Assembly: GCA_026706025.1 (NCBI GenBank)
Contig: JAPOZO010000052.1
Span: 48,337 to 112,336, forward strand
From: Candidatus Poribacteria bacterium
Lineage (GTDB): Bacteria; Poribacteria; WGA-4E; WGA-3G
Length of the DNA stretch: 64,000 bases
Direction: 5' to 3'
How positions within the stretch are numbered: the stretch's first letter is position 1; each line of letters starts with the position of its first letter. A program made the translations under genes and the position numbers. Of the stretch, positions 2,249-63,333 are shown piece after piece. The notes beneath the pieces were generated by a model, which had not been told where the DNA came from, ran no database searches, and saw nothing but the letters and a program-made list of their open reading frames with translations.

Positions 2249-2315
2249 TAGGGGTTGGGAATGTAATACAAGGAACGGATTTAGTCTATTCCCAGACTAA
2301 ATCCCCCAACCCCTA
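2249..2315. repeat. Nested stem-loop (TAGGGGTTGGG...CCCAACCCCTA enclosing GGATTTAGTCT/AGACTAAATCC)
   Basis: Perfect 11-bp outer and 11-bp inner inverted repeats read directly from the sequence. Shares the CGTAGG/GGTTGGG motif with other intergenic hairpins (family E). Confidence 0.7.
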
Positions 2316-2362
2316 TTACTATAAAAAATATTTGACGTTTTTATATCCAGAAAGGCATTTTT

Positions 2363-7396: not shown

Positions 7397-9490
7397 ATGA
7401 AAAAATGTTTGTCTTTACCTCTTATCGCGTTAGCACTTCTCACAATGTGTATATGCGTCGGCTGTGGCGCGAAAGAAGTACCTCCAGCTACGACTTCAGC
7501 AGCTGCCGAATCGGCACCGGTACAGGAATCGCAAGAAATGGACGAGCTGCCTCAATCTGCGGAAGAGGCATCAGAACATGAGTCTGCCGAAGAAGCATCA
7601 GAACATGAATCCGAAGAAGAAACGTCAGAACACGAAACTGACGCGGAACATGAGCCTGCCGAAGAAGCATCAGAACATGAATCCGAAGAGAAAACGGCAG
7701 AACATGAGACTGACGCGGAAACATCGCATGAAACTGAACCTGAAATGGTGGAGATTCCGAACGGTAGTGTGTTACATCTGATTCCAAAACAAACAATAGG
7801 GCTTATCTATTGTCCGAGTTTGCTGGAGTTGGATTATCGGATTAACACACTGGTGACAGACTTGGTCCCAACAGATGAAACCCCAGAAATTCTTGCCGAA
7901 ATCTTAGCAGATGCCTTTGGAGCTGGGTTTGAAAGTCTCGCTGAGTTAGAGGAAATTGGACTTGATTTGAACCAAGACTTTGCGATCTTCACGACCTCTT
8001 TGAATCCGCCGCAACTTTCTGCGACTGTTCATCTAACAGATCCTGCAGCCATGAAACAGGTCATTGATGCTGAAAGTGCAGGAAGTGCCCCGGTTGAATA
8101 TAACGGTGTAACTTATTGGAACGCAAGCGGTGGCGGCGGTAGTTTCGCTATCTTGGACAATACGCTTGTCTTTTCTCAATCCGCTGAAGTGTGCGAAAGT
8201 GCTATTGATACCTATAAGGGAGCCGAACAATCTGTCGCAGCCAACCCAAGCTACACTTCATTTTTCACCGATATTATGGAGGGCGACGCGCAGATCGCAG
8301 CACATTTCAACCTTGAATCCATTGCTCCGCTGCTGACTGCTCCGATTAAGGAAGAATCAGAATCAATGCGCGACGGTCTTGAAAGCGACCCTGCCGCTAT
8401 GGCGTTTGCTCCGTTCCTTACGTCTATGTTTGATTCAGTCGTAAATGTAATTGAGCAGTTGGAATCTCTAAGCGCGACGCTTGAAGTGAAGGGGACCGAT
8501 GTACAACTTGCCCCGACCTTAAAATTCAAGAACGATAGCGAAATTCAGCGATCCTTGGCAGAGATGATGCCTGACGAATTGGCAGTTCTCAGCGATCTTC
8601 CAAATCTCGCTTTTGTAAATGGCGCCTTTCAAGGGAATACACAATTACTGCTTGACATGAACATGTTATGGCTAAAAATGTTTTCAGCAAGTGCTCCAGA
8701 GCAGCAAGCGAAATTGGAGGCACTCACCGAGCAGATGACAACTTTCTATAAATCTCTCGCCGATGAGTGGGGGTTCACTGTCAATTTTGGCGATAGCATT
8801 ATCCCGGATTATCTGATCGTCTATGAGATGAAGGATAAACAACTGGCGGAAACTTACATGAATGACATGTTTCTTGAACAACTCCGCAACACAATGCAGA
8901 TCATGCAGGAAATGATTGGAAATATGCCACAATTAGGCATGTACGATGGGGCACATGCTGGTCAACCGCTGATGCACAACGACGTTGAAATAAAAAGTTA
9001 TATCTTCCCCAACTTCGGTTCGGTTTTTGGTGAGATGCCACCTGAAGCTGCTGTAATGATACCTCAGGAATGGCACTGGTACTATGCCTTTCACGAAGAT
9101 CAACTGTTTTTTGCTATCGGTGGTTCTGATCTGCTTAAAGCCGCATTGGATAGGAAAGCTGGAATGGGTGAAAGCCTTTCTGAAAATGCAAGTTACCAGA
9201 AACTGACGGGTACGTTGGGGACAGACAATAACCTGCTTTTGGCTCTTTCCCCGATGACTATGGTTAAAGGTCTCATGCCTATTGTTGCGAAAGCCGACCC
9301 GAATGCTGGCGCAGCCATGCAAATGTTCGCAGGCATGTTTATGAATGTGCCTGAGACTTACAGCATCGGTTTTTCTGCTAAAGTCCAAGAGGATGGCGGA
9401 ATCGGCGCAAACCTGCTTCTCACCCTCGGCGACTTCAAGCAGGCCATCCAAATGATTCTGATGATGCAGAATATGCAACAGATGCAATAG
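7397..9490 (+). CDS. Lipoprotein with acidic tandem-repeat region, unknown function
   Basis: Signal peptide with a Cys-rich lipobox region (LTMCICVGC). Repeats of SAEEASEHES/EEETSEHETDAEHEP are encoded by 66-nt tandem units around 7594-7722. SD GAGGAG. Confidence 0.6.
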   Translation: MKKCLSLPLIALALLTMCICVGCGAKEVPPATTSAAAESAPVQESQEMDELPQSAEEASEHESAEEASEHESEEETSEHETDAEHEPAEEASEHESEEKTAEHETDAETSHETEPEMVEIPNGSVLHLIPKQTIGLIYCPSLLELDYRINTLVTDLVPTDETPEILAEILADAFGAGFESLAELEEIGLDLNQDFAIFTTSLNPPQLSATVHLTDPAAMKQVIDAESAGSAPVEYNGVTYWNASGGGGSFAILDNTLVFSQSAEVCESAIDTYKGAEQSVAANPSYTSFFTDIMEGDAQIAAHFNLESIAPLLTAPIKEESESMRDGLESDPAAMAFAPFLTSMFDSVVNVIEQLESLSATLEVKGTDVQLAPTLKFKNDSEIQRSLAEMMPDELAVLSDLPNLAFVNGAFQGNTQLLLDMNMLWLKMFSASAPEQQAKLEALTEQMTTFYKSLADEWGFTVNFGDSIIPDYLIVYEMKDKQLAETYMNDMFLEQLRNTMQIMQEMIGNMPQLGMYDGAHAGQPLMHNDVEIKSYIFPNFGSVFGEMPPEAAVMIPQEWHWYYAFHEDQLFFAIGGSDLLKAALDRKAGMGESLSENASYQKLTGTLGTDNNLLLALSPMTMVKGLMPIVAKADPNAGAAMQMFAGMFMNVPETYSIGFSAKVQEDGGIGANLLLTLGDFKQAIQMILMMQNMQQMQ

Positions 9491-10078: not shown

Positions 10079-11386
10079 GTGCATAAACAGATAAGTTTCA
10101 TATTCAGTTTCGGCATCGCATTTTTGATTATCGTTTCTTCATTCACGATGGCGGAAACCGATACAACCGAAGGGACTGCAGCGGCAGTTGAGACCGTAGA
10201 ACCGAAGAAAAGTCCGGTTAAAATCGGCGGGGCACTCCGGATGAACTACATCTATGGCACTTACGTTGATCAAGGGCGGGGCGAAAAAATCGGTGATGTT
10301 GATCTGGAGATATTCCGTCTCAATGCTGATTTGGACTATCAAAATATCATTGGTAGACTTGAATACCGGTGGTATCCCAGATATTATGGGGGAACCCACG
10401 GTTACAGCATGATACATACCGCCTGGTTGGGGTATAATTTGGGTGATTTGGGTACGCTTAAAGCCGGGATTGTTCGGGTACCCTTTGGACCGGGTGCCTA
10501 TGGCGTTTCTACGAGTTGGTTTTTTGACCAACATTTCTATGTTGGACTTGCTGACGATCCAGATTTGGGGATCCTATGGACTGACACCCTTGATAAGTTG
10601 ACGCTTGATGTGGGCTACTTCCTCATGAGCGAACCTCAGCCGCTAAAGTATGGTAGTCTGGCGAGTTCGCGATACGCCTATGACATCGTCAAATGGGAAG
10701 AAAAAGCCGATGCGAAGGGAAACGTTGAATGGGGTGCTGGTGAAAATGGATTTGATGAGCAACATCAATTGAACCTCCGAGCAATCTATGCCCTTGAGGG
10801 TATCGCTGACGTGGGGGCATCGCTGCAATTCGGGATGCTGAAAGGGACAAATGTCGGGGATGATGATAGCGGTAACCACTATGCTGTCTCTGCTCACATG
10901 AAGAATACTGTTGCGGATTTCACGCTCTTTTCGCAATTCTCCTATTACGCACATAATATCACTGATGACACGCCTTGGGGCACCGGGGATTTAATTCCGA
11001 TGGGGGCTTATGACTTCGCGTGGCCCATCGCGTCCGAGGGATTAATACCCGCGCTCTCGCTACGTTATGGTGGGATAGATACCTCAAGCATCTCATGGAT
11101 TGACAGCGTCACGCCTTATGTAGAATGGAGCACTATCCTGAAAACGGTGGAAAACTACAATGCCAGTACTCTCGTGACAATCGGCGCAAGTTGGACAATC
11201 TTTGGGGGACTGTATGTGTATAGCGATGTAGGACTTTCCGATGGCAACTCTTTTGTCGGTAACAAGACAGCCGATGGTAAGAAAGAAGGCTATGGTAATA
11301 TCTACGATGGTGCCGGGGACTTTGGTGCTAACGGAAATAATGCTTGGAATTTGCGACTTAATTTCAACTTCGGTTATTATTTCTAA
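10079..11386 (+). CDS. Putative outer-membrane beta-barrel porin
   Basis: Signal peptide, alternating amphipathic beta-strand pattern, abundant Gly/Tyr/Asp and a C-terminal ...NFGYYF ending in Phe. GTG start with GGGGGAAG SD. Confidence 0.4.
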   Translation: MHKQISFIFSFGIAFLIIVSSFTMAETDTTEGTAAAVETVEPKKSPVKIGGALRMNYIYGTYVDQGRGEKIGDVDLEIFRLNADLDYQNIIGRLEYRWYPRYYGGTHGYSMIHTAWLGYNLGDLGTLKAGIVRVPFGPGAYGVSTSWFFDQHFYVGLADDPDLGILWTDTLDKLTLDVGYFLMSEPQPLKYGSLASSRYAYDIVKWEEKADAKGNVEWGAGENGFDEQHQLNLRAIYALEGIADVGASLQFGMLKGTNVGDDDSGNHYAVSAHMKNTVADFTLFSQFSYYAHNITDDTPWGTGDLIPMGAYDFAWPIASEGLIPALSLRYGGIDTSSISWIDSVTPYVEWSTILKTVENYNASTLVTIGASWTIFGGLYVYSDVGLSDGNSFVGNKTADGKKEGYGNIYDGAGDFGANGNNAWNLRLNFNFGYYF

Positions 11387-11387
11387 G

Positions 11388-11480
11388 TAGTTGTCAGTCG
11401 TCAGTTTTCAGTTTTCAGTTAAGCGGCAGATTGTTCCTGATAATCCCCTTAACTCTCACTGCGAGGCAAACTGACAACTC
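11388..11480. repeat. Family A heptad element copy 2
   Basis: GTCAGTCGTCAGTTTTCAGTTTTCAGTT ... CTTAACTCTCACTGCGAGGCAAACTGACAACTC. Confidence 0.8.
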
Positions 11481-15374: not shown

Positions 15375-15395
15375 ACGGCCCCGCCACAGACTCCA

Positions 15396-15430
15396 CTACT
15401 GACAACTGATGACTGAAAACTGACAACTCC
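15396..15430. repeat. Family A right-arm fragment (CTACTGACAACTGATGACTGAAAACTGACAACTCC)
   Basis: Five consecutive AACTGNC-type heptads. The left arm is absent. Confidence 0.6.
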
Positions 15431-15537
15431 TAAAACTTTTTCCCTTGCCAATTGTCAAATCTTTTGGTAAGATGATGCGAACGAAATTTTGAGAGTATTG
15501 TCTATCTAATTGATATGCACATCGGAGGAAACTCACA

Positions 15538-19618: not shown

Positions 19619-20686
19619 ATGCCGATCCCAACGATTCATGTGGGATGTACCCATTTCGCGCACGGTCGTTTACAAGCACAAGTCAATTCACACGGGTTAG
19701 AGCCCGTCGCGTGTGTGGACATCAACCTTGAAGCCGCACGCGATGGCGTATCATCAATAAACGATGCCCCTGAAGGCTTAACAGAACGTATCTACACCAC
19801 CATCACCGAAGCAAAAGAGAAGCACGATGCACAGGCTTGCCTTATCTATGCCTCAACAACTGTTCACGCCAAGTTAATCGTCGAAAGCCTGAACCTCGGT
19901 ATGCATACGCTCTGTGTCAAACCCATCGCAACAACACAGGCAGAATTCTACGACATTATTCAGGCACATAAAGCGAATCCAGGTTTAATGCTCGTTCAAG
20001 GGCAGAACAAACGTTGGAACCCCGCCGCCGCGAAGATGCGTGAATGGCTCCGCGAAGATGGTGGTATCGGTGAAATGTTAGCCGGTGAGTGCCGATTCTG
20101 GATCCGACAAAATCTGTACACTGGCCCTGATTCCCGGCAACCTGACGCTTATGTAGACGGACTCTTTTTTCATGCAGGCTGCAGCCATCAACTTGACCAA
20201 CTTGTTGCCGCAAAAGGTCTACCGAAATATGTCACCGCACATGTCCACAACCGCCGTGATCCTGAACTTGGGCAAATTGAGGCTTGGGGAACAGCAGGTG
20301 GAAACGCACTCATGGAATACGCAAACGGCGCGCCTTTCTCTTATGCTGGCACACGTGCAGGGCATGCCGGTCCCTTCGGTTGGAGCGGCAGCTGGAGCTT
20401 TCACGGCGAAGAAGGTGACCTCCGACGAGACGGAGGGCATCTGCAACTTTTCCAACTCGGCAAAAACGTCGAAGATTTAACGCTCCAAGATTTACACGCC
20501 GGTTTGATAGAAGATGATCGGCTTCAATTTGATGCTTTTGCGCAGGCGATTGTCAACGGCACGGATCGAGACTGGATGCAGGAGACAACCCTCGGCACAT
20601 GGATACTGATGGAAGCATTCAATGAGTCGGCGCGAACGCATGAACGCGTTGATGTTGAAGCGTTCGCTAAGAAGATGCTTGCTTGA
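19619..20686 (+). CDS. Gfo/Idh/MocA-family NAD(P)-dependent oxidoreductase
   Basis: Rossmann N-terminus and CVKPIATTQAE...LMLVQGQNKRWNP...IGEM conserved blocks. Confidence 0.75.
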   Translation: MPIPTIHVGCTHFAHGRLQAQVNSHGLEPVACVDINLEAARDGVSSINDAPEGLTERIYTTITEAKEKHDAQACLIYASTTVHAKLIVESLNLGMHTLCVKPIATTQAEFYDIIQAHKANPGLMLVQGQNKRWNPAAAKMREWLREDGGIGEMLAGECRFWIRQNLYTGPDSRQPDAYVDGLFFHAGCSHQLDQLVAAKGLPKYVTAHVHNRRDPELGQIEAWGTAGGNALMEYANGAPFSYAGTRAGHAGPFGWSGSWSFHGEEGDLRRDGGHLQLFQLGKNVEDLTLQDLHAGLIEDDRLQFDAFAQAIVNGTDRDWMQETTLGTWILMEAFNESARTHERVDVEAFAKKMLA

Positions 20687-20687
20687 T

Positions 20688-20790
20688 TAGTTATCAGTTG
20701 TCAGTTGTCGGTTGGTTATTCGGAACTATTAGTGAAAAGGTTTTACCTTATCCAACCACCTCTTAACCGACTACCGATCGCCATTTTGAA
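20688..20790. repeat. Family A heptad element copy 5
   Basis: TTAGTTATCAGTTGTCAGTTGTCGGTTGG ... GTGAAAAGGTTTTACC ... CCTCTTAACCGACTACCGATCG. Confidence 0.7.
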
Positions 20791-26453: not shown

Positions 26454-26556
26454 TTCGCACAACCTAACGGTTTCCTATCCTACGGAAGAAGATACAATAT
26501 CTGCACAGCCTAACAGGCTATGCTACTCCAAACAGAAGTAAAAGGAGGATTTTATT

Positions 26557-27279
26557 ATGAACAGACGTAATCTGTTCATCGCTATCTGCGGTATTACCCT
26601 CGGCATCGCCGCGATTGCGATGTCGCAAACCTATTTTGAAGATAATTTTGATGACCCAAAGGAATCTGAGAAGAAATGGGTCGCTCTCTTTGGCGATTGG
26701 GAATTCAAGGCTGATGAATACCATCAACTCCAAAATTCACCCAACTGCATGAGTGTCGTCGCTGACGAATTCTGGGACGACGAGTGGAATGATTACACTT
26801 TTGAGGTGAGAGGGAGTAAAATCAGTGGTGCTGAAGGCTTCCTGATTATGTTCCGGTGCCAAGGCTTGATGCAGCCTCGTGGTCAAGCACTCGAAGATCA
26901 TCCGCCGCGCATGGAGAAACTCAAACCTTCATTAGAGTACTGGTGGAACCTCGGCGGCTGGGGAAACACACGCTCACAGGTTGAATCTTGGGGTGGCAAA
27001 GGCGGTGCCAATAGCAATCACACTATCGACGAAAAAGAGTGGTATAGCATCAAGATCGTCAATGAACCGGGTAGTTACACGCTCTTCCTCAACGACGAAG
27101 AAGTCGCGAAGGTGGACGATGACACCGAGAATGGTGTCGGGAGAGTCGGGCTTGCAACCTGGAGCACCGTTGCGAAGTATGACGATGTTTTGGTTTATGG
27201 ACCGGATGGTCCCTCGTTACCAGTTGACGCGAAAAGCAAACTTGCAACAACTTGGGCACATCTGAAATCCGCAAAATAG
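26557..27279 (+). CDS. DUF1080-like (LamG/jellyroll, 3-keto-disaccharide-hydrolase-like) secreted protein, paralog 1
   Basis: Signal peptide, YFEDNFDD motif, jellyroll strand pattern (WxxxxGxW ... DYTFEVRGSKISGAEGFLIMFR ... VGLATWSTxxKYDDVLVYG). C-terminal KLATTWAHLKSAK. Confidence 0.6.
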   Translation: MNRRNLFIAICGITLGIAAIAMSQTYFEDNFDDPKESEKKWVALFGDWEFKADEYHQLQNSPNCMSVVADEFWDDEWNDYTFEVRGSKISGAEGFLIMFRCQGLMQPRGQALEDHPPRMEKLKPSLEYWWNLGGWGNTRSQVESWGGKGGANSNHTIDEKEWYSIKIVNEPGSYTLFLNDEEVAKVDDDTENGVGRVGLATWSTVAKYDDVLVYGPDGPSLPVDAKSKLATTWAHLKSAK

Positions 27280-27296
27280 AGAAGGAGGATGCTATT

Positions 27297-28016
27297 ATGA
27301 ACAGACGCAACTTGTTCATTGCTATTTGTACAATTACGCTCAGTATCGCCGCGCTTGCGATGTCCCAAACCTATTTTGAGGATAATTTTGATGATCCAAA
27401 GGAATCTGAAAAGAAATGGGTCGCTCTCTTCGGAGAATGGGAATTCAAGGATGATGAATACCATCAACTTCAAAACGAACCCAACTCCATGAGCGTCGTC
27501 GCCGACGAATTTTGGGATGACAAATGGAATGATTACACTTTTGAAGTGAGAGGGAGTAAAATCAGTGGTGCCGAAGGCTTCCTGATTATGTTCCGGTGTC
27601 AAGGCTTGATGCAAGACCGCGGCCGAACGCTCGAAGACCATCCGCCACGCATGGCGAAACTCGAACCTTCACTGCAGTATTGGTGGAATCTTGGGGGTTG
27701 GGGCAACTCACGCTCACAGGTTGAATCTTGGGGTGGCAAAGGCGGTGCCAATAGCAATCACACCATCGAAGACGATGAATGGTATGATATCAAGATTATC
27801 AATACACCCGATAGTTACACGCTCATCATCAACGACGAAGAAGTCGCGAAAATGGACGATAACACCGAAGATGGTGTGGGTAGAATCGGGCTTGCAACGT
27901 GGAGCACCGTTGTGAAGTATGACGAGGTTTTGGTTTATGGACCGGATGGGCTCACGCCGGTTGATCCAAAAAGTAAGCTCGCAACGGCTTGGGCACATCT
28001 GAAATCCGTGAAGTAG
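27297..28016 (+). CDS. DUF1080-like secreted protein, paralog 2 (tandem duplicate)
   Basis: About 88% amino-acid identity to the upstream gene, with an identical RBS context (AAGGAGGATnnTATTATG). C-terminal KLATAWAHLKSVK. The ORF-track start at 27252 is an artefact of the upstream overlap. Confidence 0.6.
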   Translation: MNRRNLFIAICTITLSIAALAMSQTYFEDNFDDPKESEKKWVALFGEWEFKDDEYHQLQNEPNSMSVVADEFWDDKWNDYTFEVRGSKISGAEGFLIMFRCQGLMQDRGRTLEDHPPRMAKLEPSLQYWWNLGGWGNSRSQVESWGGKGGANSNHTIEDDEWYDIKIINTPDSYTLIINDEEVAKMDDNTEDGVGRIGLATWSTVVKYDEVLVYGPDGLTPVDPKSKLATAWAHLKSVK

Positions 28017-31842: not shown

Positions 31843-33096
31843 ATGAATAAATTATTAGGTGAAGTTGACCCACAGATCGTTGAGATCGCCGCCAAAGACC
31901 TAACACGCCAACAAGATTCCCTCATGTTAATCCCCTCGGAGAACTATGCCAGCCGTGCCGTTATGGAAGCTCAAAGCAGCATTCTCGCTAACAAATATGC
32001 TGAGGGCTATCCGGGTGAGCGTTACTATAACGGATGCCGGTATATGGACGATGTTGAATCCCTCGCGATTGAACGCGCGAAGGCTCTTTTCGGGGTTGAG
32101 CACGTCAACGTCCAACCGCACGCCGGTAGCCAAGCGAATATGGCAGCCTACCATGCGCTGCTTGAACCCGGTGATACGATTCTCGGCATGTCGCTCAGTC
32201 AAGGTGGGCATCTCACGCACGGTGCTAACGTCAACTTTTCAGGAAATCTTTACAATATAGCTGCTTATGGTGTAGATGCTGAGACCGAGCGTATTGACAT
32301 GGAAGAAATCGCGCGGCTCGCAGAACAGCATCGTCCCAAACTCATCGTTGTTGGCGCGACAGCCTATCCCCGGCACTTTGACTTTGCGGCGTGGCGACAG
32401 GTTGCCGATGCCGTAGGCGCGTATCTCCTTGCAGATATAGCACATATTGCAGGACTCATCGCAGGCGGCGTTCATCCAGATCCCGTTCCTTATGCCGATG
32501 TGATTACGACAACAACACACAAAACCTTACGCGGGCCTCGCGGGGCAATGATTATGTGTAAAGCCGAGTATGCAGACAAGATTGACCGTGCTGTATTTCC
32601 CGGTTTACAAGGCGGTCCCTTCCTCCATACGATTGCTGCCAGAGCCGTTGCATTCAAAGAGGCAAGCGAACCCGACTTTAAAATATATCAAGCGCAGATT
32701 GTTAAAAATGCCAAGGCACTTGCCGCGCGGTTAATCGAAAACGGGTTCCGACTGGTGAGCGGCGGAACTGACAATCATCTCATGCTGATGGATCTCACCA
32801 CGAAATATGAGAAATTGAGTGGACGACAAGCCGCCGATCACTTAGAAGATGCTGGGATTATTGTAAACAAAAATACAATTCCGTTCGACAAAAGGAAACC
32901 GAGAACGACAAGCGGTTTACGTATCGGTACTCCGATGATTACAACGCGCGGCATGAAAGAGGATGATATGGTTCAAGTCGCCGATTTTATTACAGAGACG
33001 CTTGAGAACAGGCAGAAAGCCGCCATCAAACGCCAGGTGCGGGCGAAAGTCAAGGAACTCTGCACACAATTCCCGATTTATGAATATTTAGAGTAG
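31843..33096 (+). CDS. glyA: Serine hydroxymethyltransferase
   Basis: Full-length match, including the PLP-binding region [13 protein letters not shown]. Confidence 0.95.
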
Positions 33097-33254
33097 TTAT
33101 CGGTTGTCAGTTTTCAGAGGAATAGTTGTCAGTCATCAGACCGCTTCGCTTTCAGTTTTCAGTCAAGAGGGTCCGCGTAGCAGCTACAATGAACTGGACT
33201 GCCATAGGTGATTAACTGACGACTCTCACTGCGAGGCAAACTGAAAACTAACAA
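33095..33254. repeat. Family A heptad element copy 6 (largest; intercistronic glyA-folC)
   Basis: TAGTTATCGGTTGTCAGTTTTCAG ... TAGTTGTCAGTCATCAG ... TTTCAGTTTTCAGTCAAGAGG ... TTAACTGACGACTCTCACTGCGAGGCAAACTGAAAACTAACAACT. Runs to within 2 nt of the folC ATG, which has no SD. Confidence 0.85.
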
Positions 33255-33256
33255 CT

Positions 33257-34627
33257 ATGAATTACGAAGCGGCACTCGCCTATATTGAAGCGTTTATTGA
33301 CTATGAAAGAAGCCCTGATTTTTCACGACAGGCGCGGCTCTACAATCTTAACCGAATTTCTCTGTTGCTGAAACGACTCGGCAATCCACACGATAAATTG
33401 CGGGTTATCCACATTGCGGGTAGCAAAGGGAAAGGTTCTACCGCCGCACTCGTTGCCTCTGCTCTTACACACGCTGGCTATAAAACCGGTTTGTTTACAT
33501 CGCCGCATCTCATTACGCCCCGAGAACGATGCCGTATTGATGGGGAGCCAATTTCAGAGGCAGACGTTGGTTTCTATATTGATAGGATGAAACCTACGAT
33601 CGAAACCGTTTCCGCTTCCGAATTCGGACGTGTCTCGTTTTTTGAAATATACACCGCGCTCGCTTTTACCTATTTTGCCGACAAAGCGACTGATTTCGCT
33701 GTTATTGAAGTCGGCTTAGGTGGGAGACTTGATGCAACTAACGTTGTTAAACCCGTCGCGACTGTTATCACGCCGATTGGTTTAGAGCATACGGCAATAT
33801 TAGGGGAAACATACAGCGAGATAGCAGCTGAGAAAGCGGAGATCATCAAAGACGGATGTCCGCTCGCACTCGCGCCACAACATCCGGAAGCGCGGGCGGT
33901 GTTTGAAAAAGTTGCAAATGAACGGAACGCATTGATTGTTGAAACTAAAATCCATGACGCAGCTTCCCAACTCGTCGAGAATGTCGATGGTTTACCTGTC
34001 GCACAACGATTTGATGTGGAAACAGATTTTGAAAGTTATTCACAACTCACAATACCGCTACTTGGGCACCATCAGTTTGTGAATGCAACAACTGCTATCG
34101 CAGCGATTGAATGCCTGAAACAGAAAGGATATACAATTCCGAAAAATAGTATTTATGCCGGATTCAAGAATGTGCAATGGCACGGACGCATCCAACGGAT
34201 TATGTCTGCCCCACTTGTCGTATTGGATGGTGCGCATTCCGCTGTCTCAATGGAGGCACTCTGCTTGACGCTCCGTGAGAGTTTTCGTTACACTCGGGCG
34301 ATTTTTATCGTTAGTTTAATGAAAGATAAAAACCTTAAAGCAATTGGGGATATTGTCTCTAAAACCGCAGACACCGTGATTGCGACGCAAGTTTCTGAGA
34401 ATCCGCGTGTGATGGCGGCTGAAGCAATACAGGCTGTATGGTCTGGTACGTGTCAGAAAATTACAATATGCCCAAAGCCAGAAAAAGCAATCGCCAGGGC
34501 GTTAGCATCCGCATCGCCGACGGACCTGATCTGCATTACGGGTTCACTCTACCTTGTCGGTCAGGCACTTAAAATATTTAAATCAAATTTTTCAGCGAAA
34601 GATCGTATTGGAATTCCTCTTTCTTAG
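33257..34627 (+). CDS. folC: Folylpolyglutamate synthase/dihydrofolate synthase
   Basis: Mur-ligase P-loop IHIAGSKGKGST plus a Mur ligase C-terminal domain. Confidence 0.85.
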   Translation: MNYEAALAYIEAFIDYERSPDFSRQARLYNLNRISLLLKRLGNPHDKLRVIHIAGSKGKGSTAALVASALTHAGYKTGLFTSPHLITPRERCRIDGEPISEADVGFYIDRMKPTIETVSASEFGRVSFFEIYTALAFTYFADKATDFAVIEVGLGGRLDATNVVKPVATVITPIGLEHTAILGETYSEIAAEKAEIIKDGCPLALAPQHPEARAVFEKVANERNALIVETKIHDAASQLVENVDGLPVAQRFDVETDFESYSQLTIPLLGHHQFVNATTAIAAIECLKQKGYTIPKNSIYAGFKNVQWHGRIQRIMSAPLVVLDGAHSAVSMEALCLTLRESFRYTRAIFIVSLMKDKNLKAIGDIVSKTADTVIATQVSENPRVMAAEAIQAVWSGTCQKITICPKPEKAIARALASASPTDLICITGSLYLVGQALKIFKSNFSAKDRIGIPLS

Positions 34628-34641
34628 CGAAAGATCGTAAG

Positions 34642-34775
34642 TCCGTAATGAAGCAGATCGCTTATGGGGTTTTTGCTTGGGGCTTCTTCAAGTACGCCGC
34701 AAAATGGAGGGCGGCTCTACGGAAAGGAACTCCAATGCTCAAACCCACTTTATTGAACCGCAAGGAAAATTAAAA
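34642..34775 (+). promoter_or_regulatory. Conserved leader motif (family C) upstream of hppA
   Basis: Blocks CCGTAATGAAGCAGATCGCTTATGGG / GTACGCCGCAAAATGGAGGGCGG / CAAACCCACTTTATTGAACCGCAAGGAAAATTAAAAA, near-identical to 42328-42442. Confidence 0.55.
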
Positions 34776-34795
34776 AAGAAAAAGAGAGGTTTTAA

Positions 34796-37153
34796 ATGCG
34801 TGATATCACTTGCAAAAGATGGTGGCTAAATTGGAAGTCATTTCTAATAGTCCTACCGCTTCTAAATTTAGCCACCGAAGCTTTTGCCCAAACAACTCCT
34901 CGTCCAGATGTACCGCCAGCATGGTGGATTGCCCCTATTGGTGCCCTCATCGCTTTGGGATTTGCTTACCACTTTTACCGTGCCGTGATGAAGCAAGACG
35001 AGGGCAATGAAACAATGCGAGACATAGCGCAATCCGTGCGCGAGGGCGCGATGGCATATCTCAGGCAACAATACAAAGTGGTAGGTATCGTCTTTGTTGT
35101 CCTTTGTCTGATCTTCATCTTCATGGCTTTCGTCCTCAAAGCCCAAAATGAAGTTATTCCCTTCGCTTTCCTCACAGGGGGTTTTTTCTCAGGCCTCTGC
35201 GGTTTCCTCGGCATGAAAACCGCGACCAACGCCTCTGCCCGCACCACAAGCGCGGCTATGCAAGGACTCAACGCCGGTTTGAAGGTCTCGTTCCGTGCCG
35301 GGGCGGTCATGGGATTGATAGTCGTCGGATTCGCACTGCTTGATATTACCGGATGGTTCCTCATTCTCTACTACCTCTTCCCCAAGATATTACCCGGATT
35401 CTTAGAAGTGAACCCGCTGCCCCAGATTACTGTGATTATGCTCAGTTTCGGTATGGGTGCTTCAACACAAGCCCTCTTCGCCCGCGTTGGTGGCGGTATC
35501 TATACAAAAGCAGCGGATGTCGGGGCAGACCTCGTCGGAAAAGTTGAAGCCGGAATTCCAGAGGATGACCCGCGCAATCCGGCTGTTATCGCAGATAATG
35601 TTGGGGACAACGTCGGTGATGTTGCAGGCATGGGGGCGGATCTCTACGAATCTTATGCGGGTTCAATTCTCGCGACCGCTGCCCTCGGTGTCGCTGCGGT
35701 TGCTGCGAAAGATCACGATAACCTTGTGGACCAGCTTAAATATCTCTCAGCACCGATGATTATCGCTGGCATCGGCGTGATCCTCTCTATTTTGGGTATC
35801 TACATGGTCCGAACAAAAGAGGGTGCGACCATGAAACAGTTGATGGGTTCCCTTAACTTCGGGATTAACGGTAGTGCTTTCGGCATCGCCATCTTGTCGC
35901 TCCCTGTGCTTATCTACCTCGATCTCCCGAACAAGTGGCAGGTGTGGGGCGCAATCATCGCTGGGCTTGTAGCAGGCTTGATTATCGGCAAAGTCACCGA
36001 AATCTTTACCTCTCACGATTACAAACCGACACGTGCAATCGCTAAGCAGGCGCAAACCGGCCCCGCAACTGTAATTATTGAAGGTATTGCTGTCGGTATG
36101 GAATCAACGGCGATTCCAGTCATAACGATTGTTGCTGCGGTCGCTGTCAGCTACTATCTTCCGGGTGGCGCAACCGAACCGCTGATGGGACTTTACGGTG
36201 TCGGTATCGCTGCTGTCGGTATGCTGGCGACGCTCGGTATAACCCTTGCCACAGATGCTTACGGACCCATCGCAGACAACGCCGGTGGGAACGCTGAAAT
36301 GGCAAAACTCGATGAAAGTGTCCGAGAACGCACGGATCAATTAGACGCGCTCGGGAATACGACCGCCGCAACCGGTAAGGGGTTTGCAATCGGTTCAGCC
36401 GCGCTAACAGCACTCGCACTCCTTGCCGCCTATTTGGAAGAAATCCGGTACGGTTTGATTCACCTGGCAGGTAAGGACACCCTGGATATCGAAGGCGAGG
36501 GCACGGTTGAGACGTTGAAGGTTAGCGTCAGCCAATTTATGGATTACTACGATGTCACGCTGATGAACCCGCAAGTGCTCATCGGATTGTTCATCGGGGC
36601 AGTGATGGCGTTTTATTTTTGTGCATTGACGATGAAAGCCGTCGGACGTGCCGCCGGTGCTATGGTGGCAGAAGTCCGTCGCCAGTTTCGTGAAAAACCG
36701 GGCATTATGAAAGGCGAAGAGAAACCGGATTACGCACGGTGTGTTGAAATCTCTACCGTTGGCGCGCAACGGGAGATGATTTTCCCGTCGCTTATCGCTA
36801 TCGTTGTGCCTGTGCTTGTCGGCTTGATTTTTGATGTCGGTGGCGTGTTAGGATTGCTGGCGGGCGGCTTAGCAACCGGTTTCGTCCTCGCAATTATGAT
36901 GGCAAATGCCGGAGGCGCGTGGGACAACGCCAAAAAGTTTATTGAAGAGGGTAGACACAAGGACGAATATGGTGAAAAAGGCTCCGACGAGCACAAAGCG
37001 ACTATTGTCGGTGATACCGTCGGAGACCCCTTCAAAGATACTTCCGGGCCCTCGCTTAACATCCTAATTAAGTTGATGTCTATGGTGTCTGTCGTGTTTG
37101 CCGGACTCATAGCGAAATACGGTGGTGTGCTTAGCAGTTGGCTCGGTATATAG
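34796..37153 (+). CDS. hppA: Membrane-bound proton-translocating pyrophosphatase
   Basis: Signature GGIYTKAADVGADLVGKVE and DNVGDNVGDVAGMGADL motifs. About 16 TM helices. Confidence 0.9.
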   Translation: MRDITCKRWWLNWKSFLIVLPLLNLATEAFAQTTPRPDVPPAWWIAPIGALIALGFAYHFYRAVMKQDEGNETMRDIAQSVREGAMAYLRQQYKVVGIVFVVLCLIFIFMAFVLKAQNEVIPFAFLTGGFFSGLCGFLGMKTATNASARTTSAAMQGLNAGLKVSFRAGAVMGLIVVGFALLDITGWFLILYYLFPKILPGFLEVNPLPQITVIMLSFGMGASTQALFARVGGGIYTKAADVGADLVGKVEAGIPEDDPRNPAVIADNVGDNVGDVAGMGADLYESYAGSILATAALGVAAVAAKDHDNLVDQLKYLSAPMIIAGIGVILSILGIYMVRTKEGATMKQLMGSLNFGINGSAFGIAILSLPVLIYLDLPNKWQVWGAIIAGLVAGLIIGKVTEIFTSHDYKPTRAIAKQAQTGPATVIIEGIAVGMESTAIPVITIVAAVAVSYYLPGGATEPLMGLYGVGIAAVGMLATLGITLATDAYGPIADNAGGNAEMAKLDESVRERTDQLDALGNTTAATGKGFAIGSAALTALALLAAYLEEIRYGLIHLAGKDTLDIEGEGTVETLKVSVSQFMDYYDVTLMNPQVLIGLFIGAVMAFYFCALTMKAVGRAAGAMVAEVRRQFREKPGIMKGEEKPDYARCVEISTVGAQREMIFPSLIAIVVPVLVGLIFDVGGVLGLLAGGLATGFVLAIMMANAGGAWDNAKKFIEEGRHKDEYGEKGSDEHKATIVGDTVGDPFKDTSGPSLNILIKLMSMVSVVFAGLIAKYGGVLSSWLGI

Positions 37154-42266: not shown

Positions 42267-42327
42267 GAAAAAGGAGGCGGCGTCCCTCCGCTTCCGCCAC
42301 ACCTACGAAGTTTTAATGCGCGCATAG

Positions 42328-42442
42328 CCCGTAATGAAGCAGATCGCTTATGGGCGAGTACGCCGCAAAATGGAGGGCGGATAGAGGGAGAAGAACGTCA
42401 AAGGTCAAACCCACTTCAACGAACCGCAAGGAAAATTAAAAA
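42328..42442 (+). promoter_or_regulatory. Conserved leader motif (family C) upstream of the lactonase gene
   Basis: Same three blocks as 34642-34775, ending 1 nt before the ATG. Confidence 0.55.
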
Positions 42443-51251: not shown

Positions 51252-51339
51252 TAAAATACAAAAGATAATTCTTTTTAGCATACCCGTGAAACTTCATAAA
51301 ATGGTGTGCGTAATTAACATCTAAATAGTTACCCAAAAA

Positions 51340-51601
51340 GCGTTGAAGGGGAGGAGTAAGTCGCCCGGGCTTGCAAGAGATGGAGACTCATCGGCTGAAA
51401 GGTCTCCTCAAGTTACCACGACTGAAGGTCGCCCTGGAGCTGCTAATCTGAACACATATCAGTAGGATTAGTCGGTCCGATGCCCGTTATCGTATCCCAA
51501 AGAGTGCTCTTTCTCATAAGAGAAAGGGAATTGGAGTGGTACCACGGTAAGGTCAGTATTATGTCCTTCTCGTCTCCATGTTTGGAACGAGAAGGTTTTT
51601 T
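51340..51601 (+). promoter_or_regulatory. T-box riboswitch leader with intrinsic terminator, upstream of ilvB
   Basis: Stem I region with an AGAGA motif (51376-51380). T-box sequence AATTGGAGTGGTACCACGG (51529-51547) matches the consensus AATTAGGGTGGTACCGCGG at 15 of 19 positions. Terminator CCTTCTCGT...ACGAGAAGG + TTTTTT at 51565-51601, 55 nt before the ilvB ATG. Confidence 0.6.
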
Positions 51602-51654: not shown

Positions 51655-53331
51655 ATGGAACTTTCAGGAGCACAAATCCTGGTTGATGGTCTCAAGCGGG
51701 AAGGTGTCGAATATATCTTCGGTGTCAACGGTGGCGCAGCGATGCCGATTTTTGATGCCTTGTACGGCGAGACCGAAATCAAATTGATTCCGATGCGGCA
51801 TGAACAAGGGGCTTCCCACGCCGCTGATGGCTACGCACGCGCCACCGGGAAGGTCGGTGTTGCACTCGCAACCTCCGGTCCCGGCGCTACCAATCTCGTC
51901 ACCGGTATCGCTACTGCCTATATGGACTCCATTCCGATGGTCGCGATTACTGGTCAGGTTTTCACGCACTATATCGGCAGTGATGCTTTCCAAGAATGCG
52001 ATGTTATCGGCGTGACACGCCCGATCTGTAAGCACAGTTACCTCATTACAAGCAGTGACGAAATCGCAGATGTTGTCGCTGAAGCGTTTCACATCGCGAA
52101 AACAGGGAAACCGGGTCCTGTTATTATTGACATCGCCAAAGATGCGCAGATACATGAAGCCCTGTTTCAGTATCCAGAAACGGTTGACATCCGTAGCTAC
52201 AAACCTCAAGTTCATGGCGATCCGGTACAAATTGCCAAGGCGGCGGCACTGATAAAAGAAGCCAAACGCCCTATGCTTTATGCCGGCGGCGGTGTAGTCC
52301 TTGCGAATGCCAGCGAAGAACTACGGCAGCTGACCTTGAATACACAGATCCCGATTACCGTTACCTTGATGGGACTTGGCGCGTTCCCTGAGACGCATCC
52401 GTTAGCAATGGAGATGCCCGGCATGCACGGCTCCTGTTGCGCAAATTATGCCTTCACCGATTCAGACTTGGTTATCGCTATTGGTGCGAGATTTGACGAC
52501 CGCGTTACCGGGGATCTCAGTAAATTCGCACCTAACGCCAAGAAGATCCACATTGATATAGACGCGTCTTGTATTGGGAAAAACGTCCCTGTTGATGTCC
52601 CGATCGTTGGCGATGCGAAAAGCGTCCTGACGGAACTCAACAAACAGGTCGGTACAGCGGATATCGACCCGTGGCGCGCCCAGATTCAGGAGTGGAAGCA
52701 GAAATACCCATTTGAATACGATCAAAAATCGGATATAGTCATGCCGCAATTTGTTATTGAAAAAATATATGAGCATTACAGTGATGCCATCGTTGTTGCG
52801 GATGTCGGACAACACCAGATGTGGGCAGCGCAGTACTTCAAATTCACTGAACCTCGACAGTGGCTTAATTCTGGAGGGCTTGGCACGATGGGCTTTAGCC
52901 TACCCGCCGCAATCGGTGCGCAGCTCGGATGTCCAGACAAAACCGTCGTCAATATCAACGGGGACGGGTCCTATATCATGACGATCCAAGAACTGGTCCC
53001 AGCGGTTACCATGAAGCTGCCGCTTAAGGTCTTCATCATTAACAATATGTACCTCGGAATGGTACGCCAGTGGCAGGAATTGTTCCACGGCAAACGTTAT
53101 TCCGCTGTTGATTACCACGACAACCCTGATTTCGCCTTGCTCGCACAAGCGTTCGGTGCCACGGGCTTGCGGGTCGAACACCCTGAAGATGTCGAACCCG
53201 CATTACAGAAGGCAAAAGGGATTACCGACGGTCCTGTGGTCATTGACTTTATTGTTGATGAAGAAGAGAACGTGTTCCCGATGGTGCCAGCCGGTAAAGG
53301 GCTTGGAGATGTTATTCGCGGGTTATCTTAA
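51655..53331 (+). CDS. ilvB: Acetolactate synthase large subunit
   Basis: ThDP-enzyme blocks, including GDG(S/A)...NN region IINNMYLGMVRQWQ. Confidence 0.9.
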   Translation: MELSGAQILVDGLKREGVEYIFGVNGGAAMPIFDALYGETEIKLIPMRHEQGASHAADGYARATGKVGVALATSGPGATNLVTGIATAYMDSIPMVAITGQVFTHYIGSDAFQECDVIGVTRPICKHSYLITSSDEIADVVAEAFHIAKTGKPGPVIIDIAKDAQIHEALFQYPETVDIRSYKPQVHGDPVQIAKAAALIKEAKRPMLYAGGGVVLANASEELRQLTLNTQIPITVTLMGLGAFPETHPLAMEMPGMHGSCCANYAFTDSDLVIAIGARFDDRVTGDLSKFAPNAKKIHIDIDASCIGKNVPVDVPIVGDAKSVLTELNKQVGTADIDPWRAQIQEWKQKYPFEYDQKSDIVMPQFVIEKIYEHYSDAIVVADVGQHQMWAAQYFKFTEPRQWLNSGGLGTMGFSLPAAIGAQLGCPDKTVVNINGDGSYIMTIQELVPAVTMKLPLKVFIINNMYLGMVRQWQELFHGKRYSAVDYHDNPDFALLAQAFGATGLRVEHPEDVEPALQKAKGITDGPVVIDFIVDEEENVFPMVPAGKGLGDVIRGLS

Positions 53332-53340
53332 CGATTTTAA

Positions 53341-53500
53341 GGGTTGTCAGTTTTAAGAGTTATCAGTTTTCAGTTAAGACCCTGTGTCGAGAACATTTTC
53401 TGTCGCTGTCACAAGATACCTCTTTAACTGACGACTGATAACTATTCCCTCTGATAACTGACGACTGAAAGGGTTGCGTAGCAACCCGCACTGAAAACTA
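53341..53500. repeat. Family A heptad element copy 8 (intercistronic ilvB-ilvN)
   Basis: GGTTGTCAGTTTTAAGAGTTATCAGTTTTCAGTTAAGACC ... CTCTTTAACTGACGACTGATAACT ... CTGATAACTGACGACTGAAAG ... CACTGAAAACT. Ends 8 nt before the ilvN ATG. Confidence 0.85.
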
Positions 53501-54011: not shown

Positions 54012-54140
54012 ATGGTTGTCGGTACGTTCCGCTGCGCTCCACTTTCAGCTATAGGTTATCAGTTGAATGTGTGGCGGGTGAAAAGGTTTAACCTGCTACA
54101 AACGAGTTACTGACAACTGGCAACTGACAACTGATAACTT
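54012..54140. repeat. Family A heptad element copy 9 (intercistronic ilvN-ilvC)
   Basis: GGTTGTCGGT ... CAGCTATAGGTTATCAGTTG ... GTGAAAAGGTTTAACC ... GTTACTGACAACTGGCAACTGACAACTGATAACTT. Confidence 0.8.
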
Positions 54141-54157
54141 AAAAAGGAATAGACTTT

Positions 54158-55150
54158 ATGGCAACGATTTATTACGATAGTGATGCTAATTTTGACTTAC
54201 TGAAAGAGCGTACCGTCGCTGTTGTTGGCTATGGTGCGCAAGGACGTGCACAGTCGCTAAATCTCAAAGACAGCGGTGCAAACGTGATCGTCGCATTATA
54301 CGAAGGCAGCCGTTCAAAAGCCCGTGCAGAAGCGGAAGGTCTGACTGTCAAGAACGTTGAAGAAGCCGCAGCAATGGCAGACATCGTCCAAGTTCTCATA
54401 CCTGACGAACGCCACGCCGCTGTCTATCGCGACCAGATTGCCCCTAACATGGAAGCAGGCAATATGCTCCTCGTCTCACACGGGTTTAGCGTCCACTTTG
54501 GGCAGATTGTACCTGCCAGCGACATTGATGTCGCAATGATTGCGCCTAAGGGCCCCGGTTCCCTCGTTCGTGAAGTGTTTGAAGGCGGTGGTGGTGTGCC
54601 GTGCCTTATCGCCATCCATCAAGACACCACAGGTCTCGCGCGCGATGTCGCACTCGCTTATGCAAGAGGTATCGGCGGCACACGTGCTGGGGTCATTGAA
54701 ACGACGTTCCGCGAGGAGACCGAAACCGATCTCTTCGGTGAGCAAGCCGTGTTGTGTGGCGGAACCGCTGCCCTCATCAAAGCCGCCTTTGATACACTCG
54801 TTGAAGCCGGTTATCAACCGGAAATGGCTTATTTTGAATGCCTCCACGAGTTGAAATTGATTGTTGACCTGATCTATACGGGTGGGTTGAGCAAGATGCG
54901 GAACGATGTCAGCAACACCGCCGAATACGGTGATCTAACACGCGGTCCTCAACTCATTGACGATAGTGTCCGGGACAAGATGCGCCAAATCTTGAAAGAC
55001 GTTCAAGGCGGTGTCTTTGCACGTGAATGGGTTTTGGAAAATGAGGCGAACCAACCCGTGTTAGGCGCGCTCCGCCGACAAGAGGCGGAACTTGAGATCG
55101 AAGAAGTCGGAAAAAATCTCCGTAGCATGATGAGTTGGCTTGATGAATAG
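54158..55150 (+). CDS. ilvC: Ketol-acid reductoisomerase
   Basis: [21 protein letters not shown] Rossmann motif and the KARI C-terminal knotted domain. Confidence 0.95.
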
Positions 55151-55238
55151 CCGCTCCTTTCGGTAATTGTGGTAGGTGCGGTTTTGCGGTGTACCATAGG
55201 TGTCAATTTAGTAGATTTTCAGTGGTTTTCTCTTGAAG

Positions 55239-55490
55239 TCCCGTAGGTTGGGTTGAACGGCGTTGAGAAGTGGACTGTTGACAGGTCAAACACCCCTGAA
55301 AGTCAATATCCGACCACATCTATTCGTGAACGTAGTGAAACCCAACTTTACGCTGTCAGCCCCGCGGAACCTTCAAATCAAAAGCGTTGGGTTTCACTCG
55401 GTCTCTGATGGGTGTGGTGTATCTGGAACAAGTTGTGTTTTCTATGATTTTCGGGTTTTTAGTGGCATCCGTTCAACCCAACCTACGGGA
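55239..55490. mobile_element. MITE-like 252-bp element with 22-bp perfect terminal inverted repeats and a nested 13-bp inverted repeat
   Basis: Terminal inverted repeats TCCCGTAGGTTGGGTTGAACGG (55239-55260) and CCGTTCAACCCAACCTACGGGA (55469-55490). Inner repeats AGTGAAACCCAAC (55334-55346) and GTTGGGTTTCACT (55386-55398). No transposase gene and no clear target-site duplication. Confidence 0.5.
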
Positions 55491-55520
55491 CGATACTTGG
55501 GTATTTCTGCGGATTTCTTC

Positions 55521-55553
55521 GCGTACACCGCAGAATTGCCCTACTACAAACGG
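55521..55553. repeat. GCGTACACCGCAGAATTGCCCTACTACAAAC repeat module (second copy at 63287-63317)
   Basis: 29 of 31 nt identical between the two copies. The GCGTACACCGCA submodule also occurs at 10003-10014 and as GGTAGGTGCGGTTTTGCGGTGTAC at 55171-55194. Confidence 0.7.
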
Positions 55554-55640
55554 TCAGGTTCGTAGTAGTGCGATTCATCGCACGTTCCGACATTACCGAA
55601 TTAATAAATTAATCCTCATCCAACCGCACCGCAATAGTAA

Positions 55641-59073: not shown

Positions 59074-59116
59074 TAATTAGCCCCAATTTCAAAATATAAT
59101 CCGTAATATGATTTTT

Positions 59117-59240
59117 AGGTTATAAGTTTTCAGTTTCCAGTCTTCGGTCTTCAGTTACAAACGGTTACCCGTAAATGAACACGCTCTTAACTGATAAATC
59201 TCACTGCGATGCAAACTGATGACTGATAACTTCTCTAACT
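59117..59240. repeat. Family A heptad element copy 10
   Basis: GGTTATAAGTTTTCAGTTTCCAGTCTTCGGTCTTCAGTTAC ... CTCTTAACTGATAAATCTCACTGCGATGCAAACTGATGACTGATAACTTCTCTAACTGAA. Confidence 0.8.
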
Positions 59241-60307: not shown

Positions 60308-60497
60308 TCCAAGATAACAGACGAGTAGTCTGTCCAGTCTAAAATTGGGAATAATCCCGCTCGTAGTAGGGCAATTCATTGCCCGTTCCTAAGCATCGGA
60401 CGTGCGATAAATCGCACTACTACGAACTAATCCACCTACAATTCAAAGATAGACAGACTACGAGGTAGACGAAATCGTAATATTTTAATTGCCAACA

Positions 60498-61274: not shown

Positions 61275-61716
61275 GAATCATCCCTCCTTAGATTCTGATG
61301 CCTTTTAGACAAGTTAATGTAGCACAAACTTCCCAGTTTGTGTGCTATGGGCGCAAACTGGAAAGTTTTGCGGCGTATTCGCCCAGATGCGACGTGCATC
61401 GCGCTACAACATGCTTATCAAACTCACGTTAAAGTACGTACTTAAAATCCAATACCTTCGCCCAAATAGGGCAAATCTCCTAAAGTTATGGAAAACCAAA
61501 CTATAACTTAGAAAAGATACTAACCCACGTATAAAATTGTATCACTGTTCACCGTTTAAATCCACGCAAAAAATTTAAAGCCACGCAACGCATTGCGCGA
61601 CTACAAACGGCACTACTAACAGTGTTGGGTTTCGCTTACGCTCTACCCAACCTACGATAAATTGTATGTGTTGAATTGTTAGGTTTTGCTACACGCTAAT
61701 CAACCTACAGAATCGG

Positions 61717-63246: not shown

Positions 63247-63333
63247 CCCCCCATATCCCCCCTTATCAGGGGGGCAGGGGGTAGGCGAGTACGCCGCAGA
63301 ATTGCCCTACTACAAACAATTCAGAGTTATCCA

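Follow-up and report, generated by a model that had tools for sequence, protein, structure and literature searches.

A mobile, mosaic leader cassette upstream of unrelated genes in Poribacteria

The REP and BIME elements of enterobacteria are small palindromic modules which are combined in varied orders, lie between genes and vary between strains; they are present in high copy number, mostly at the 3' ends of genes or between convergent genes. REP/REPIN units are recognized by a GT(A/G)G head and an imperfect palindrome of about 20–35 nt, and occur in hundreds of copies, mostly 3' of genes, along with an associated RAYT (Y1 transposase). The Correia-type MITEs of Neisseria, small non-coding mobile elements with terminal inverted repeats and a TA target duplication, are located upstream of genes, and can change expression as well as mRNA processing. 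The binding sites of CsrA, which controls a number of bacterial leaders, do not need invariant blocks of 20–26 nt. Putative mobile promoters are an operational class, defined by Matus-Garcia, Nijveen & van Passel in 2012 and implying no mechanism, of highly similar stretches of 50 to more than 100 nt that precede non-homologous genes, have differing upstream genes, and form copy sets which differ between close relatives (PMC3488235). In an example from Treponema, conservation covers positions of about –5 to –120 relative to the start codon (PMC3488235).

The 64,000-nt stretch of DNA analyzed here (the window) contains two sequences, both on the plus strand, which we consider to be copies of a mobile, mosaic, Poribacteria-specific leader cassette, subject to gain and loss and conserved at the sites that retain it; this interpretation appears well supported by the data described below. 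Copy A (34640–34776) lies between a folC-like gene (33257–34627) and the H+-pyrophosphatase gene hppA (34796–37153), and copy B (42326–42442), which has an orthologous copy in locus L022, precedes the ATG of a lactonase gene at 42444. In Pfam terms, a Mur_ligase-type folC-like gene and H_PPase flank copy A, and Thiolase and Lactonase flank copy B; the downstream genes (H_PPase and Lactonase) are non-homologous to each other, as are the upstream genes (Mur_ligase and Thiolase). An earlier note on this DNA had described shared blocks in the same order before both genes, and three blocks of 26, 23 and 22 nt were indeed found to be identical in the two copies: block 1, CCGTAATGAAGCAGATCGCTTATGGG, at 34643–34668 and 42329–42354; block 2, GTACGCCGCAAAATGGAGGGCGG, at 34692–34714 and 42358–42380; and the 3' block, GAACCGCAAGGAAAATTAAAAA, at 34755–34776 and 42421–42442. 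Within the window, each block has exactly these two occurrences, and no match to any of the three arose in 100 dinucleotide shuffles. From block 2 to the end, copies A and B share 85% identity over 86 nt, and a further 29 nt are 97% identical. The 23-nt insertion noticed in the hppA copy is likewise present; it is GU-rich (GTTTTTGCTTGGGGCTTCTTCAA, 34669–34691), and copy B has CGA in its place. That both copies run into the ribosome-binding site and ATG is correct for copy B, which ends 1 nt before the ATG, but not for copy A, which ends 19 nt before it. The AAGGA of copy B is the sole Shine-Dalgarno sequence of the lactonase gene; the pyrophosphatase gene (ATG 34796) retains its own GAGAGG site at 34784–34789, which is also found in relatives without the cassette. 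A submotif thought to recur at 55521 and 63287 was located as an exact GTACGCCGCA at 63289, but the site near 55523 reads GTACACCGCA.

The cassette starts with a short helix, P0 (GCCC:GGGC), and a conserved loop (GUAAUGAA...AAUGGA). In most copies, a repeat module is nested in the P0 loop, comprising a hairpin GAAGC-AGAUC-GCUUA, UGGG, the CGA linker or GU-rich insert, and GUACGCCGCAAAA. Then follow a variable hairpin, P3, which is enclosed by GCGG:CCGC, and, directly 3' of P3, CCGCAAGGAAAAUUAAAAA, a Shine-Dalgarno sequence in an A-rich spacer abutting the start codon. In copy A, the first bases of block 1, CC, and GT at 34641–34642 constitute the 5' arm of P0, and the remainder of the block contains the small hairpin AAGC-AGATC-GCTT. 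The GU-rich insert module at 34669–34691, which replaces CGA, comprises 1 to about 4 units in other copies and is also seen in non-leader repeats. Block 2 consists of a GTACGCCGCAAAA core common to other repeat families, followed by TGGAGGGCGG; its GGGC is the 3' arm of P0 and its GCGG the 5' arm of helix P2'. P3 spans 34720–34755 (arms 34720–34729 and 34746–34755; enclosed by GCGG 34711–34714 and CCGC 34758–34761), and CCGCAAGGAAAATTAAAAA at 34758–34776 provides the Shine-Dalgarno-like AAGGA (34762–34766) and the A-rich spacer. The P3 region of copy B extends from 42386 to 42421 (arms 42386–42395 and 42412–42421; enclosed by GCGG 42377–42380 and CCGC 42424–42427), and a C-to-G change at its base weakens the hairpin relative to that of L022. 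The corresponding 3' part (42424–42442) contains AAGGA at 42428–42432, the start codon being located 16 nt after the first A of AAGG. Immediately 5' of copy A, the sequence 34588–34639 (plus strand), between the end of folC in the relatives and block 1, is specific to this copy; it contains a 20-nt direct repeat (34588–34607 and 34620–34639; TTTTTCAGCGAAAGATCGTA and TTTCTTAGCGAAAGATCGTA), present on this one side only, and the folC-like reading frame continues through it, about 13 codons beyond its stop in L026.

Block 2 was used to scan one genome per species, and block 1 to scan JGI metagenomes. The block-2 scan yielded 23 loci in 19 genomes, all 23 of 23 matches belonging to Poribacteria, with one or two exact matches per genome, complete chromosomes included; the block-1 scan added 7 further loci. 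Altogether, 33 full copies from at least 19 Poribacteria genomes were collected, and within the public data scanned the element was seen only in sponge-associated Poribacteria; viral contigs searched for it gave no match. Pyrophosphatase homologues at 88–92% identity belong to organisms named Candidatus Poribacteria (NCBI), and together with the block-2 matches this assigns the window to a poribacterium; its lactonase protein is encoded on the ENA scaffold ROBB21-1 scaffold_84 (179 kb). The order of the parts is constant in all copies found by the two scans, and the distance from TGGAG to the cassette end is 70–73 nt in every copy. A reading frame on the same strand follows in 32 of 32 full copies with readable sequence, L016 being too close to the locus end, and the upstream gene, 0–453 nt distant, is co-directional in 27 of 30 cases. 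According to the automatic start call, the start codon is located 15–16 nt after the first A of AAGG in 18 of the 33 copies; in several further copies, as read by eye, the frame appears open back to that position via non-ATG codons (GTC, ATT). The downstream genes represent at least 19 unrelated Pfam families, including thiE, gamma-glutamyltranspeptidase, YmdB, zinc alcohol dehydrogenase, alpha/beta hydrolase and sulfotransferase, besides HAD, ProC, aldose epimerase, FGE-sulfatase and E1-beta. A second copy is found at a distance of up to 8 kb in the window and in L008, L013, L015, L017, L036 and L040. The L002 locus, a Logan contig (SRR10996931), ends within the cassette, 26 nt 5' of the lactonase ATG, which a repeat-caused assembly break would explain. 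The possibility raised at the outset that the blocks are dispersed over non-leader positions, with no strand or position bias, does not hold for the full cassette, because every readable full copy is placed and oriented as a leader.

The cassette is also a mosaic: block 1, the GTACRCCGCARAA core and the GU-rich insert recur as sub-blocks in other intergenic repeats, three of which are not leader-oriented. Of 11 intergenic occurrences of the 11-mer core outside the cassette, 8 are oriented as leaders and 3 are not. In short forms of the cassette (L017:7564, L015:1964, L036:2854 and L040:12367), GCCCGUAA(U/C)GAA is joined directly to (A/G)UGGAGGGCGG; since these forms lack the segment GCAGAUCGCUUAUGGG-CGA-GUACGCCGCAA, this segment is a module nested in the P0 loop. 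The nested module, with hairpin variants such as GAUGCAnnUCGCAUC, is also found on quite different downstream hairpins, namely in L017:1042, L023:6800, L020:2186, L010:1628 and a partial relative in the window, copy C. The latter, on the minus strand at 61366–61400, consists of the hairpin GATGCACGTCGCATC, TGGGCGAA and TACGCCGCAAAA, followed by a different hairpin module, and is located 103 nt upstream of a Laminin_G_3 gene (60498–61274, minus strand). Other variants are solitary 3' halves, and GU-rich inserts inside non-leader repeats. Extra matches to CCGCAAGG in the loci turned out to be ordinary coding sequence.

Several other small repeats were observed in the same genomes. The GU-rich module, with units like TTGCTTGGGTRTTTCTGCGKA, is present in the window at 34669–34691 and 55500–55522 and in L011, L013, L014, L030 and L036; it invariably follows (A)TGG(A)GGG, its unit number ranges from 1 to about 4, and its behavior is that of a small expanding repeat. 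A palindrome of C and G runs, CCCCCCTTATCAGGGGGG, precedes the GTACGCCGCAGAA core in the window (63240–63288) and in L004:4630–4673 and is a recurring module. REP-doublet-like palindromes with GTAGTAG heads (GGGCAATTCATTGCCC, GTGCGATTCATCGCAC) occur at 55533–55585 and 60357–60427, one of them directly after a GTACACCGCAGAA core. Another repeat associated with leaders, ACTCTCACTGCGAGGCAAACTGAnAACT, is found at 11452–11479, 33222–33249 and 59197–59224, and in L008:1–22; it lies just 5' of the gene starts at 11498 and 33257, and in L008 it is fused to a 3'-half cassette copy. A 7-nt unit (CAGTTnT, or AACTGnC when read on the opposite strand) forms short tandem arrays in intergenic spacers at gene ends (676–723, 787–818, 11386–11423, 15395–15437, 20679–20714, 33092–33167, 53335–53378, 54094–54153 and 59113–59159). 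Besides, a 300-nt direct repeat of 88% identity (26542–26841 and 27282–27581) marks two adjacent paralogous genes, and 72-nt repeats (7547–7717), by eye seemingly rich in acidic codons, lie inside a 697-aa reading frame (7397–9490).

Pyrophosphatase orthologues were compared together with their flanks. In L026, L028, L037, L038 and L039, the hppA proteins of which are 92–97% identical, the folC-hppA spacer measures 29–38 nt and is free of the cassette; nothing but the native A-rich sequence and GAGAGG is found in these empty spacers. In L027 (hppA 94%), the site keeps only the 3' part of the cassette, AAACCTACTTCATTGAACCGCAAGGAAATTTTTAAAAA, and in L029 and L040 it is occupied by other small repeats. 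L026 and L027 also have no cassette at the lactonase site. Conversely, the window has an empty site between lactonase and tmk (TAAAGGAAAAAAATG), where L026, L027 and L039 have a relative of about 105 nt, made of the 3' half and ending with CCGCAAGGAAGAATAAAAAAATG. The junction at the tmk site falls inside AAGGA...AAAAATG; in both alignable pairs of filled and empty sites, the 3' junction is situated in the Shine-Dalgarno/A-rich stretch. Variation also affects the modules, as L011 and L031, with upstream flanks that are 97% identical, differ by presence (L011) and absence (L031) of the GU-rich insert. The leader shared by unrelated genes is no chance similarity; it is strand-specific and conserved in at least 19 Poribacteria genomes. 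It does not mark a regulon stably, being polymorphic for insertion/deletion between close relatives.

Some further small elements were seen at or near these sites. At 55238–55491, the window contains a MITE-like element whose terminal inverted repeat, GTCCCGTAGGTTGGGTTGAACGG, is perfect over 23 nt, and a related one with GTAGGTTGGGT.GAACG ends fills the folC-hppA spacer of L029 (L029:9860–9960). Between the pyrophosphatase gene and the next gene of L040, two short-form leaders (GCCUGAAACGAAGUGGAAGGCGG...CCGCAAGGAAAATTTAAAAA) are arranged in tandem (L040:12367–12558); the window has no spacer at this position. L037, a relative with a 97% identical pyrophosphatase, carries an IS200/IS605 pair (Y1_Tnp and OrfB_IS605/TnpB; 885–2546, minus strand), which could in principle mobilize hairpin-bearing small repeats.

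Such turnover invites the explanation that the cassette is selfish small mobile DNA of the MITE, REP or PATE kind, without host function, and that it lies in leaders only because it inserts there preferentially or because harmless insertions survive. Orthologous sites are indeed polymorphic for presence of the cassette, a property of MITEs; the mosaic, nested build with modules common to several repeat families, the entry of other small repeats into the same spacers (L029, L040), the local clustering of copies, and the IS200/IS605 genes (Y1 transposase and OrfB) of the close relative L037 also agree with this idea. However, no terminal inverted repeats join the ends of copy A or copy B, and comparison of filled with empty sites revealed no target-site duplication at folC-hppA or lactonase-tmk. 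The copy number, with 1–2 exact block-2 matches per complete genome, is low, and the cassette adheres strictly to its orientation and distance relative to the start codon. The pattern of conservation argues against selfish DNA as well: orthologous copies (L004/L025, L009/L035) are 94–97% identical, as compared to 49–61% for their upstream flanks and 61% for third codon positions, far above what flanks and synonymous sites retain. Retained copies are under purifying selection. In paralogous copies, the blocks are identical and the middle part (P3) is divergent, indicating that the constraint is specific to the blocks and not simply due to recent copying. We consequently regard a purely selfish element as quite improbable.

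Is the cassette active as RNA or as DNA? Folds of the whole element were no more stable than those of shuffled sequences (z of –0.7 and –0.1), and RNAalifold on a plain MAFFT alignment found invariant pairs only, missing P3 because gaps were misplaced in that alignment. A hand-anchored, ungapped seed was then converted to a covariance model, which served to align 42 matches found in 359 kb. In this alignment, 64.5% of the P3 cells are paired, as compared to 29–43% with slid partners, and 48 cells show double changes versus 21 ± 3.7 in shuffles, none of 500 shuffles reaching the observed value; since the alignment was fitted to the model and several sequences are orthologous, the number of events is smaller than that of cells. 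Pair 19–90 of P3, for instance, is GC in 21, AU in 10 and GU in 7 sequences. The seven basal P3 pairs include 33 G.U as compared to 15 A.C combinations, an excess which mildly favors the cassette strand acting as RNA. P3 is weak in about half of the copies, both window copies among them. The enclosing GCGG:CCGC pairs are almost invariant, rare departures being unpaired cells, and P1, P2 and P2' never vary and thus carry no covariation information. P0 is formed by the tetranucleotides immediately 5' of G[UA]AA[UC]GAA and 3' of [AG]UGGA; of 35 copies, 29 have it intact. Its covariation rests on few events, namely two independent compensatory changes, GCUC:GAGC in the long form L033 and GCCU:AGGC in short forms (those of L040 and, as read by eye, the one upstream of the L027 lactonase gene), along with U.G intermediates. 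Compensatory substitutions, as expected of a structured cis-acting RNA, were thus found in two helices, P3 and P0, and suggest that the cassette acts as RNA. That blocks 1 and 2 are transcribed is suggested by the covariation of one of these helices, P0.

Other proposed structures fared less well. The CGCC...GGCG stem suggested in the earlier note shows no covariation, and cannot form in the short variants, which lack that segment. The loop of block 1, AGAUC, might pair with GAUNU 3' of block 2, but N varies without compensation, and this pairing was dismissed; only in copy A can the GU-rich insert pair with the P3 loop. An upstream frame opening at the ATG of block 1 or block 2 was likewise discarded, since by eye it stops at differing places (in copy B, for example, right after block 2), and the inserts shift or stop it.

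With respect to known RNA classes, comparison with Rfam, as previously advised, identified no family at gathering score in the two window copies; in the window plus 144 kb of loci with 18 copies, the cassette had no match at gathering score, and only chance-level matches at E ≤ 10. Elsewhere in the window, a T-box leader (RF00230, 113.7 bits; 51334–51580, plus strand) was detected upstream of a gene for an acetolactate-synthase-type TPP enzyme (51655–53331), followed downstream by ketol-acid reductoisomerase (54158–55150), so that a poribacterial operon for branched-chain amino acids carries a T-box. A literature search on Poribacteria RNA motifs, REP elements and CsrA likewise returned nothing relevant. 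The element is undescribed in Rfam and in the literature searched, the closest published concept being the putative mobile promoter class (PMC3488235).

A ligand-sensing riboswitch or a self-cleaving ribozyme in the 5' untranslated region would combine invariant loop and junction nucleotides, covarying stems and an insert of variable length, all of which the cassette has, and alternative pairings that exclude one another can be drawn (GCCC with either GGG run; GGGCGG with CGCC, GCCC or CCGC). Moreover, AAAAUGGAGGGCGG presumably resembles the 3' part of the twister ribozyme. However, no Rfam family, including the ribozyme families held by Rfam, matched even at E ≤ 10, and an expression platform is missing in that no predicted helix covers AAGGA and there is no terminator; the search for intrinsic terminators or attenuators in the cassette was negative. 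The association with genes is also unstable between close relatives. The resemblance to twister was dismissed, as no model matched and the required P2 pairing cannot be drawn. The earlier reading of the sequence as regulatory RNA thus holds insofar as the cassette is a leader with two covarying helices and no match in Rfam, but nothing points to a ligand-sensing riboswitch, because the downstream genes share no function. Sensing of a ligand or self-cleavage is, to our judgment, very unlikely.

The main rival is a mobile promoter cassette acting on DNA, in which blocks 1 and 2 or the nested GTACGCCGCAAAAT module would be the promoter and operator and transcription would start near GGAGGGCGG; the mRNA would then begin with the P2'/P3 hairpin as a 5'-terminal stabilizer, followed by the Shine-Dalgarno sequence. 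Invariant upstream blocks combined with a covarying downstream hairpin fit this model, and CAAAAT/CAGAAT in the core resembles a –10 hexamer in 4 of 6 positions. It would also account for the core outside the cassette being mostly leader-oriented and 74–250 nt from same-strand starts (8 of 11), and for the occurrence of variants with the 3' half only inside apparent operons, such as lactonase-tmk; the copies moreover qualify as putative mobile promoters in the operational sense (PMC3488235). That about 50 nt are invariant could just as well be due to recognition at the DNA level. However, the scan revealed no sigma-70-like –35/–10 pair: no sigma-70 consensus was found in or upstream of the cassette, with the proviso that poribacterial promoter types may differ, and upstream sequences were not enriched in it (3 loci with at least 8 of 12 positions, versus 7.3 ± 2.2 in shuffles). 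In short-linker copies, the junction of blocks 1 and 2 can be read as a sigma-54-like GG-N10-GC, a pattern that was discarded since the insert destroys it in long copies. Generally, inserts of 3 to about 100 nt alter the spacing of blocks 1 and 2, so that the two cannot make up a single promoter of fixed geometry; short forms without the core still possess P0, P3 and the Shine-Dalgarno sequence; the P0 covariation in the long form L033 implies that block 1 is transcribed; and about 50 invariant positions exceed the usual need of a promoter. Overall, a DNA promoter cassette appears rather unlikely.

Our preferred explanation is that the cassette, of about 120–190 nt, functions at the mRNA level as a portable 5' untranslated region with a Shine-Dalgarno sequence, and that its invariant parts are read by a shared factor; we assign this reading a probability of roughly 45%. 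Spread would proceed by recombination through microhomology of the Shine-Dalgarno/A-rich stretch rather than by a transposase. The downstream gene would thereby receive a ribosome-binding site, which the adjacent hairpin may insulate from upstream sequence. Because copy A is located upstream of a native ribosome-binding site, supplying such a site cannot be the whole role of the cassette. The invariant loop and blocks might form the recognition site of a hypothetical, shared trans-acting factor, for example an RNA-binding protein contacting the GGA of the loop and that of the Shine-Dalgarno sequence, and genes acquiring the cassette would join one post-transcriptional control circuit. A bolder version, which we consider doubtful, is a mobile riboregulator, that is, a structured 5'-UTR module read by a dedicated RNA-binding protein or small ligand, which is recombined before new genes and rewires regulon membership as species diverge.

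Poribacteria are uncultivated sponge symbionts in which the control of gene expression is almost unexplored, and the cassette provides a compact, conserved sequence tag, readily found by computer, for metabolic genes, the set of which changes from species to species. Should it be a regulatory leader, it would show how bacteria can move a ready-made ribosome-binding and control module between genes, and could serve as bait for its reader. On the practical side, the cassette breaks short-read assemblies, and it can mislead the calling of start codons.

Compared with the known systems, the cassette resembles REP/BIME elements in its mosaic, modular build, and the window does contain GTAGTAG-headed palindromes similar to REP doublets; in contrast to these elements, however, it is of low copy number, strand-locked, strictly 5' of genes and terminated by a ribosome-binding site. 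Its length of 120–190 nt, the 1–2 exact block-2 matches per complete genome and its invariable position 5' of a gene set it apart from REP/REPIN units. With Correia-type MITEs it has in common that a small non-coding element lands upstream of genes, but it is devoid of terminal inverted repeats and target duplication. Like CsrA/RsmA-controlled leaders, it has a GGA in a hairpin loop (AAUGGA in P0) and another in the Shine-Dalgarno sequence (AAGGA), about 55 nt apart and, as judged from the sequence, within what we take to be bridging distance; this is a resemblance only. The cis-regulatory leaders and riboswitches of Rfam similarly reside in 5' untranslated regions and combine conserved loops with covarying stems, but the cassette matches none of their models, precedes an incoherent set of genes, and changes its associations rapidly. 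Putative mobile promoters come closest, as the pair of copies A and B has both the high similarity and the non-homologous neighbors of this class and the extent of the cassette is much like that of the Treponema example; beyond these traits, the poribacterial cassette adds evidence of RNA helices, nested modules, conservation in numerous species of one phylum, and a Shine-Dalgarno sequence at a fixed distance from the start codon.
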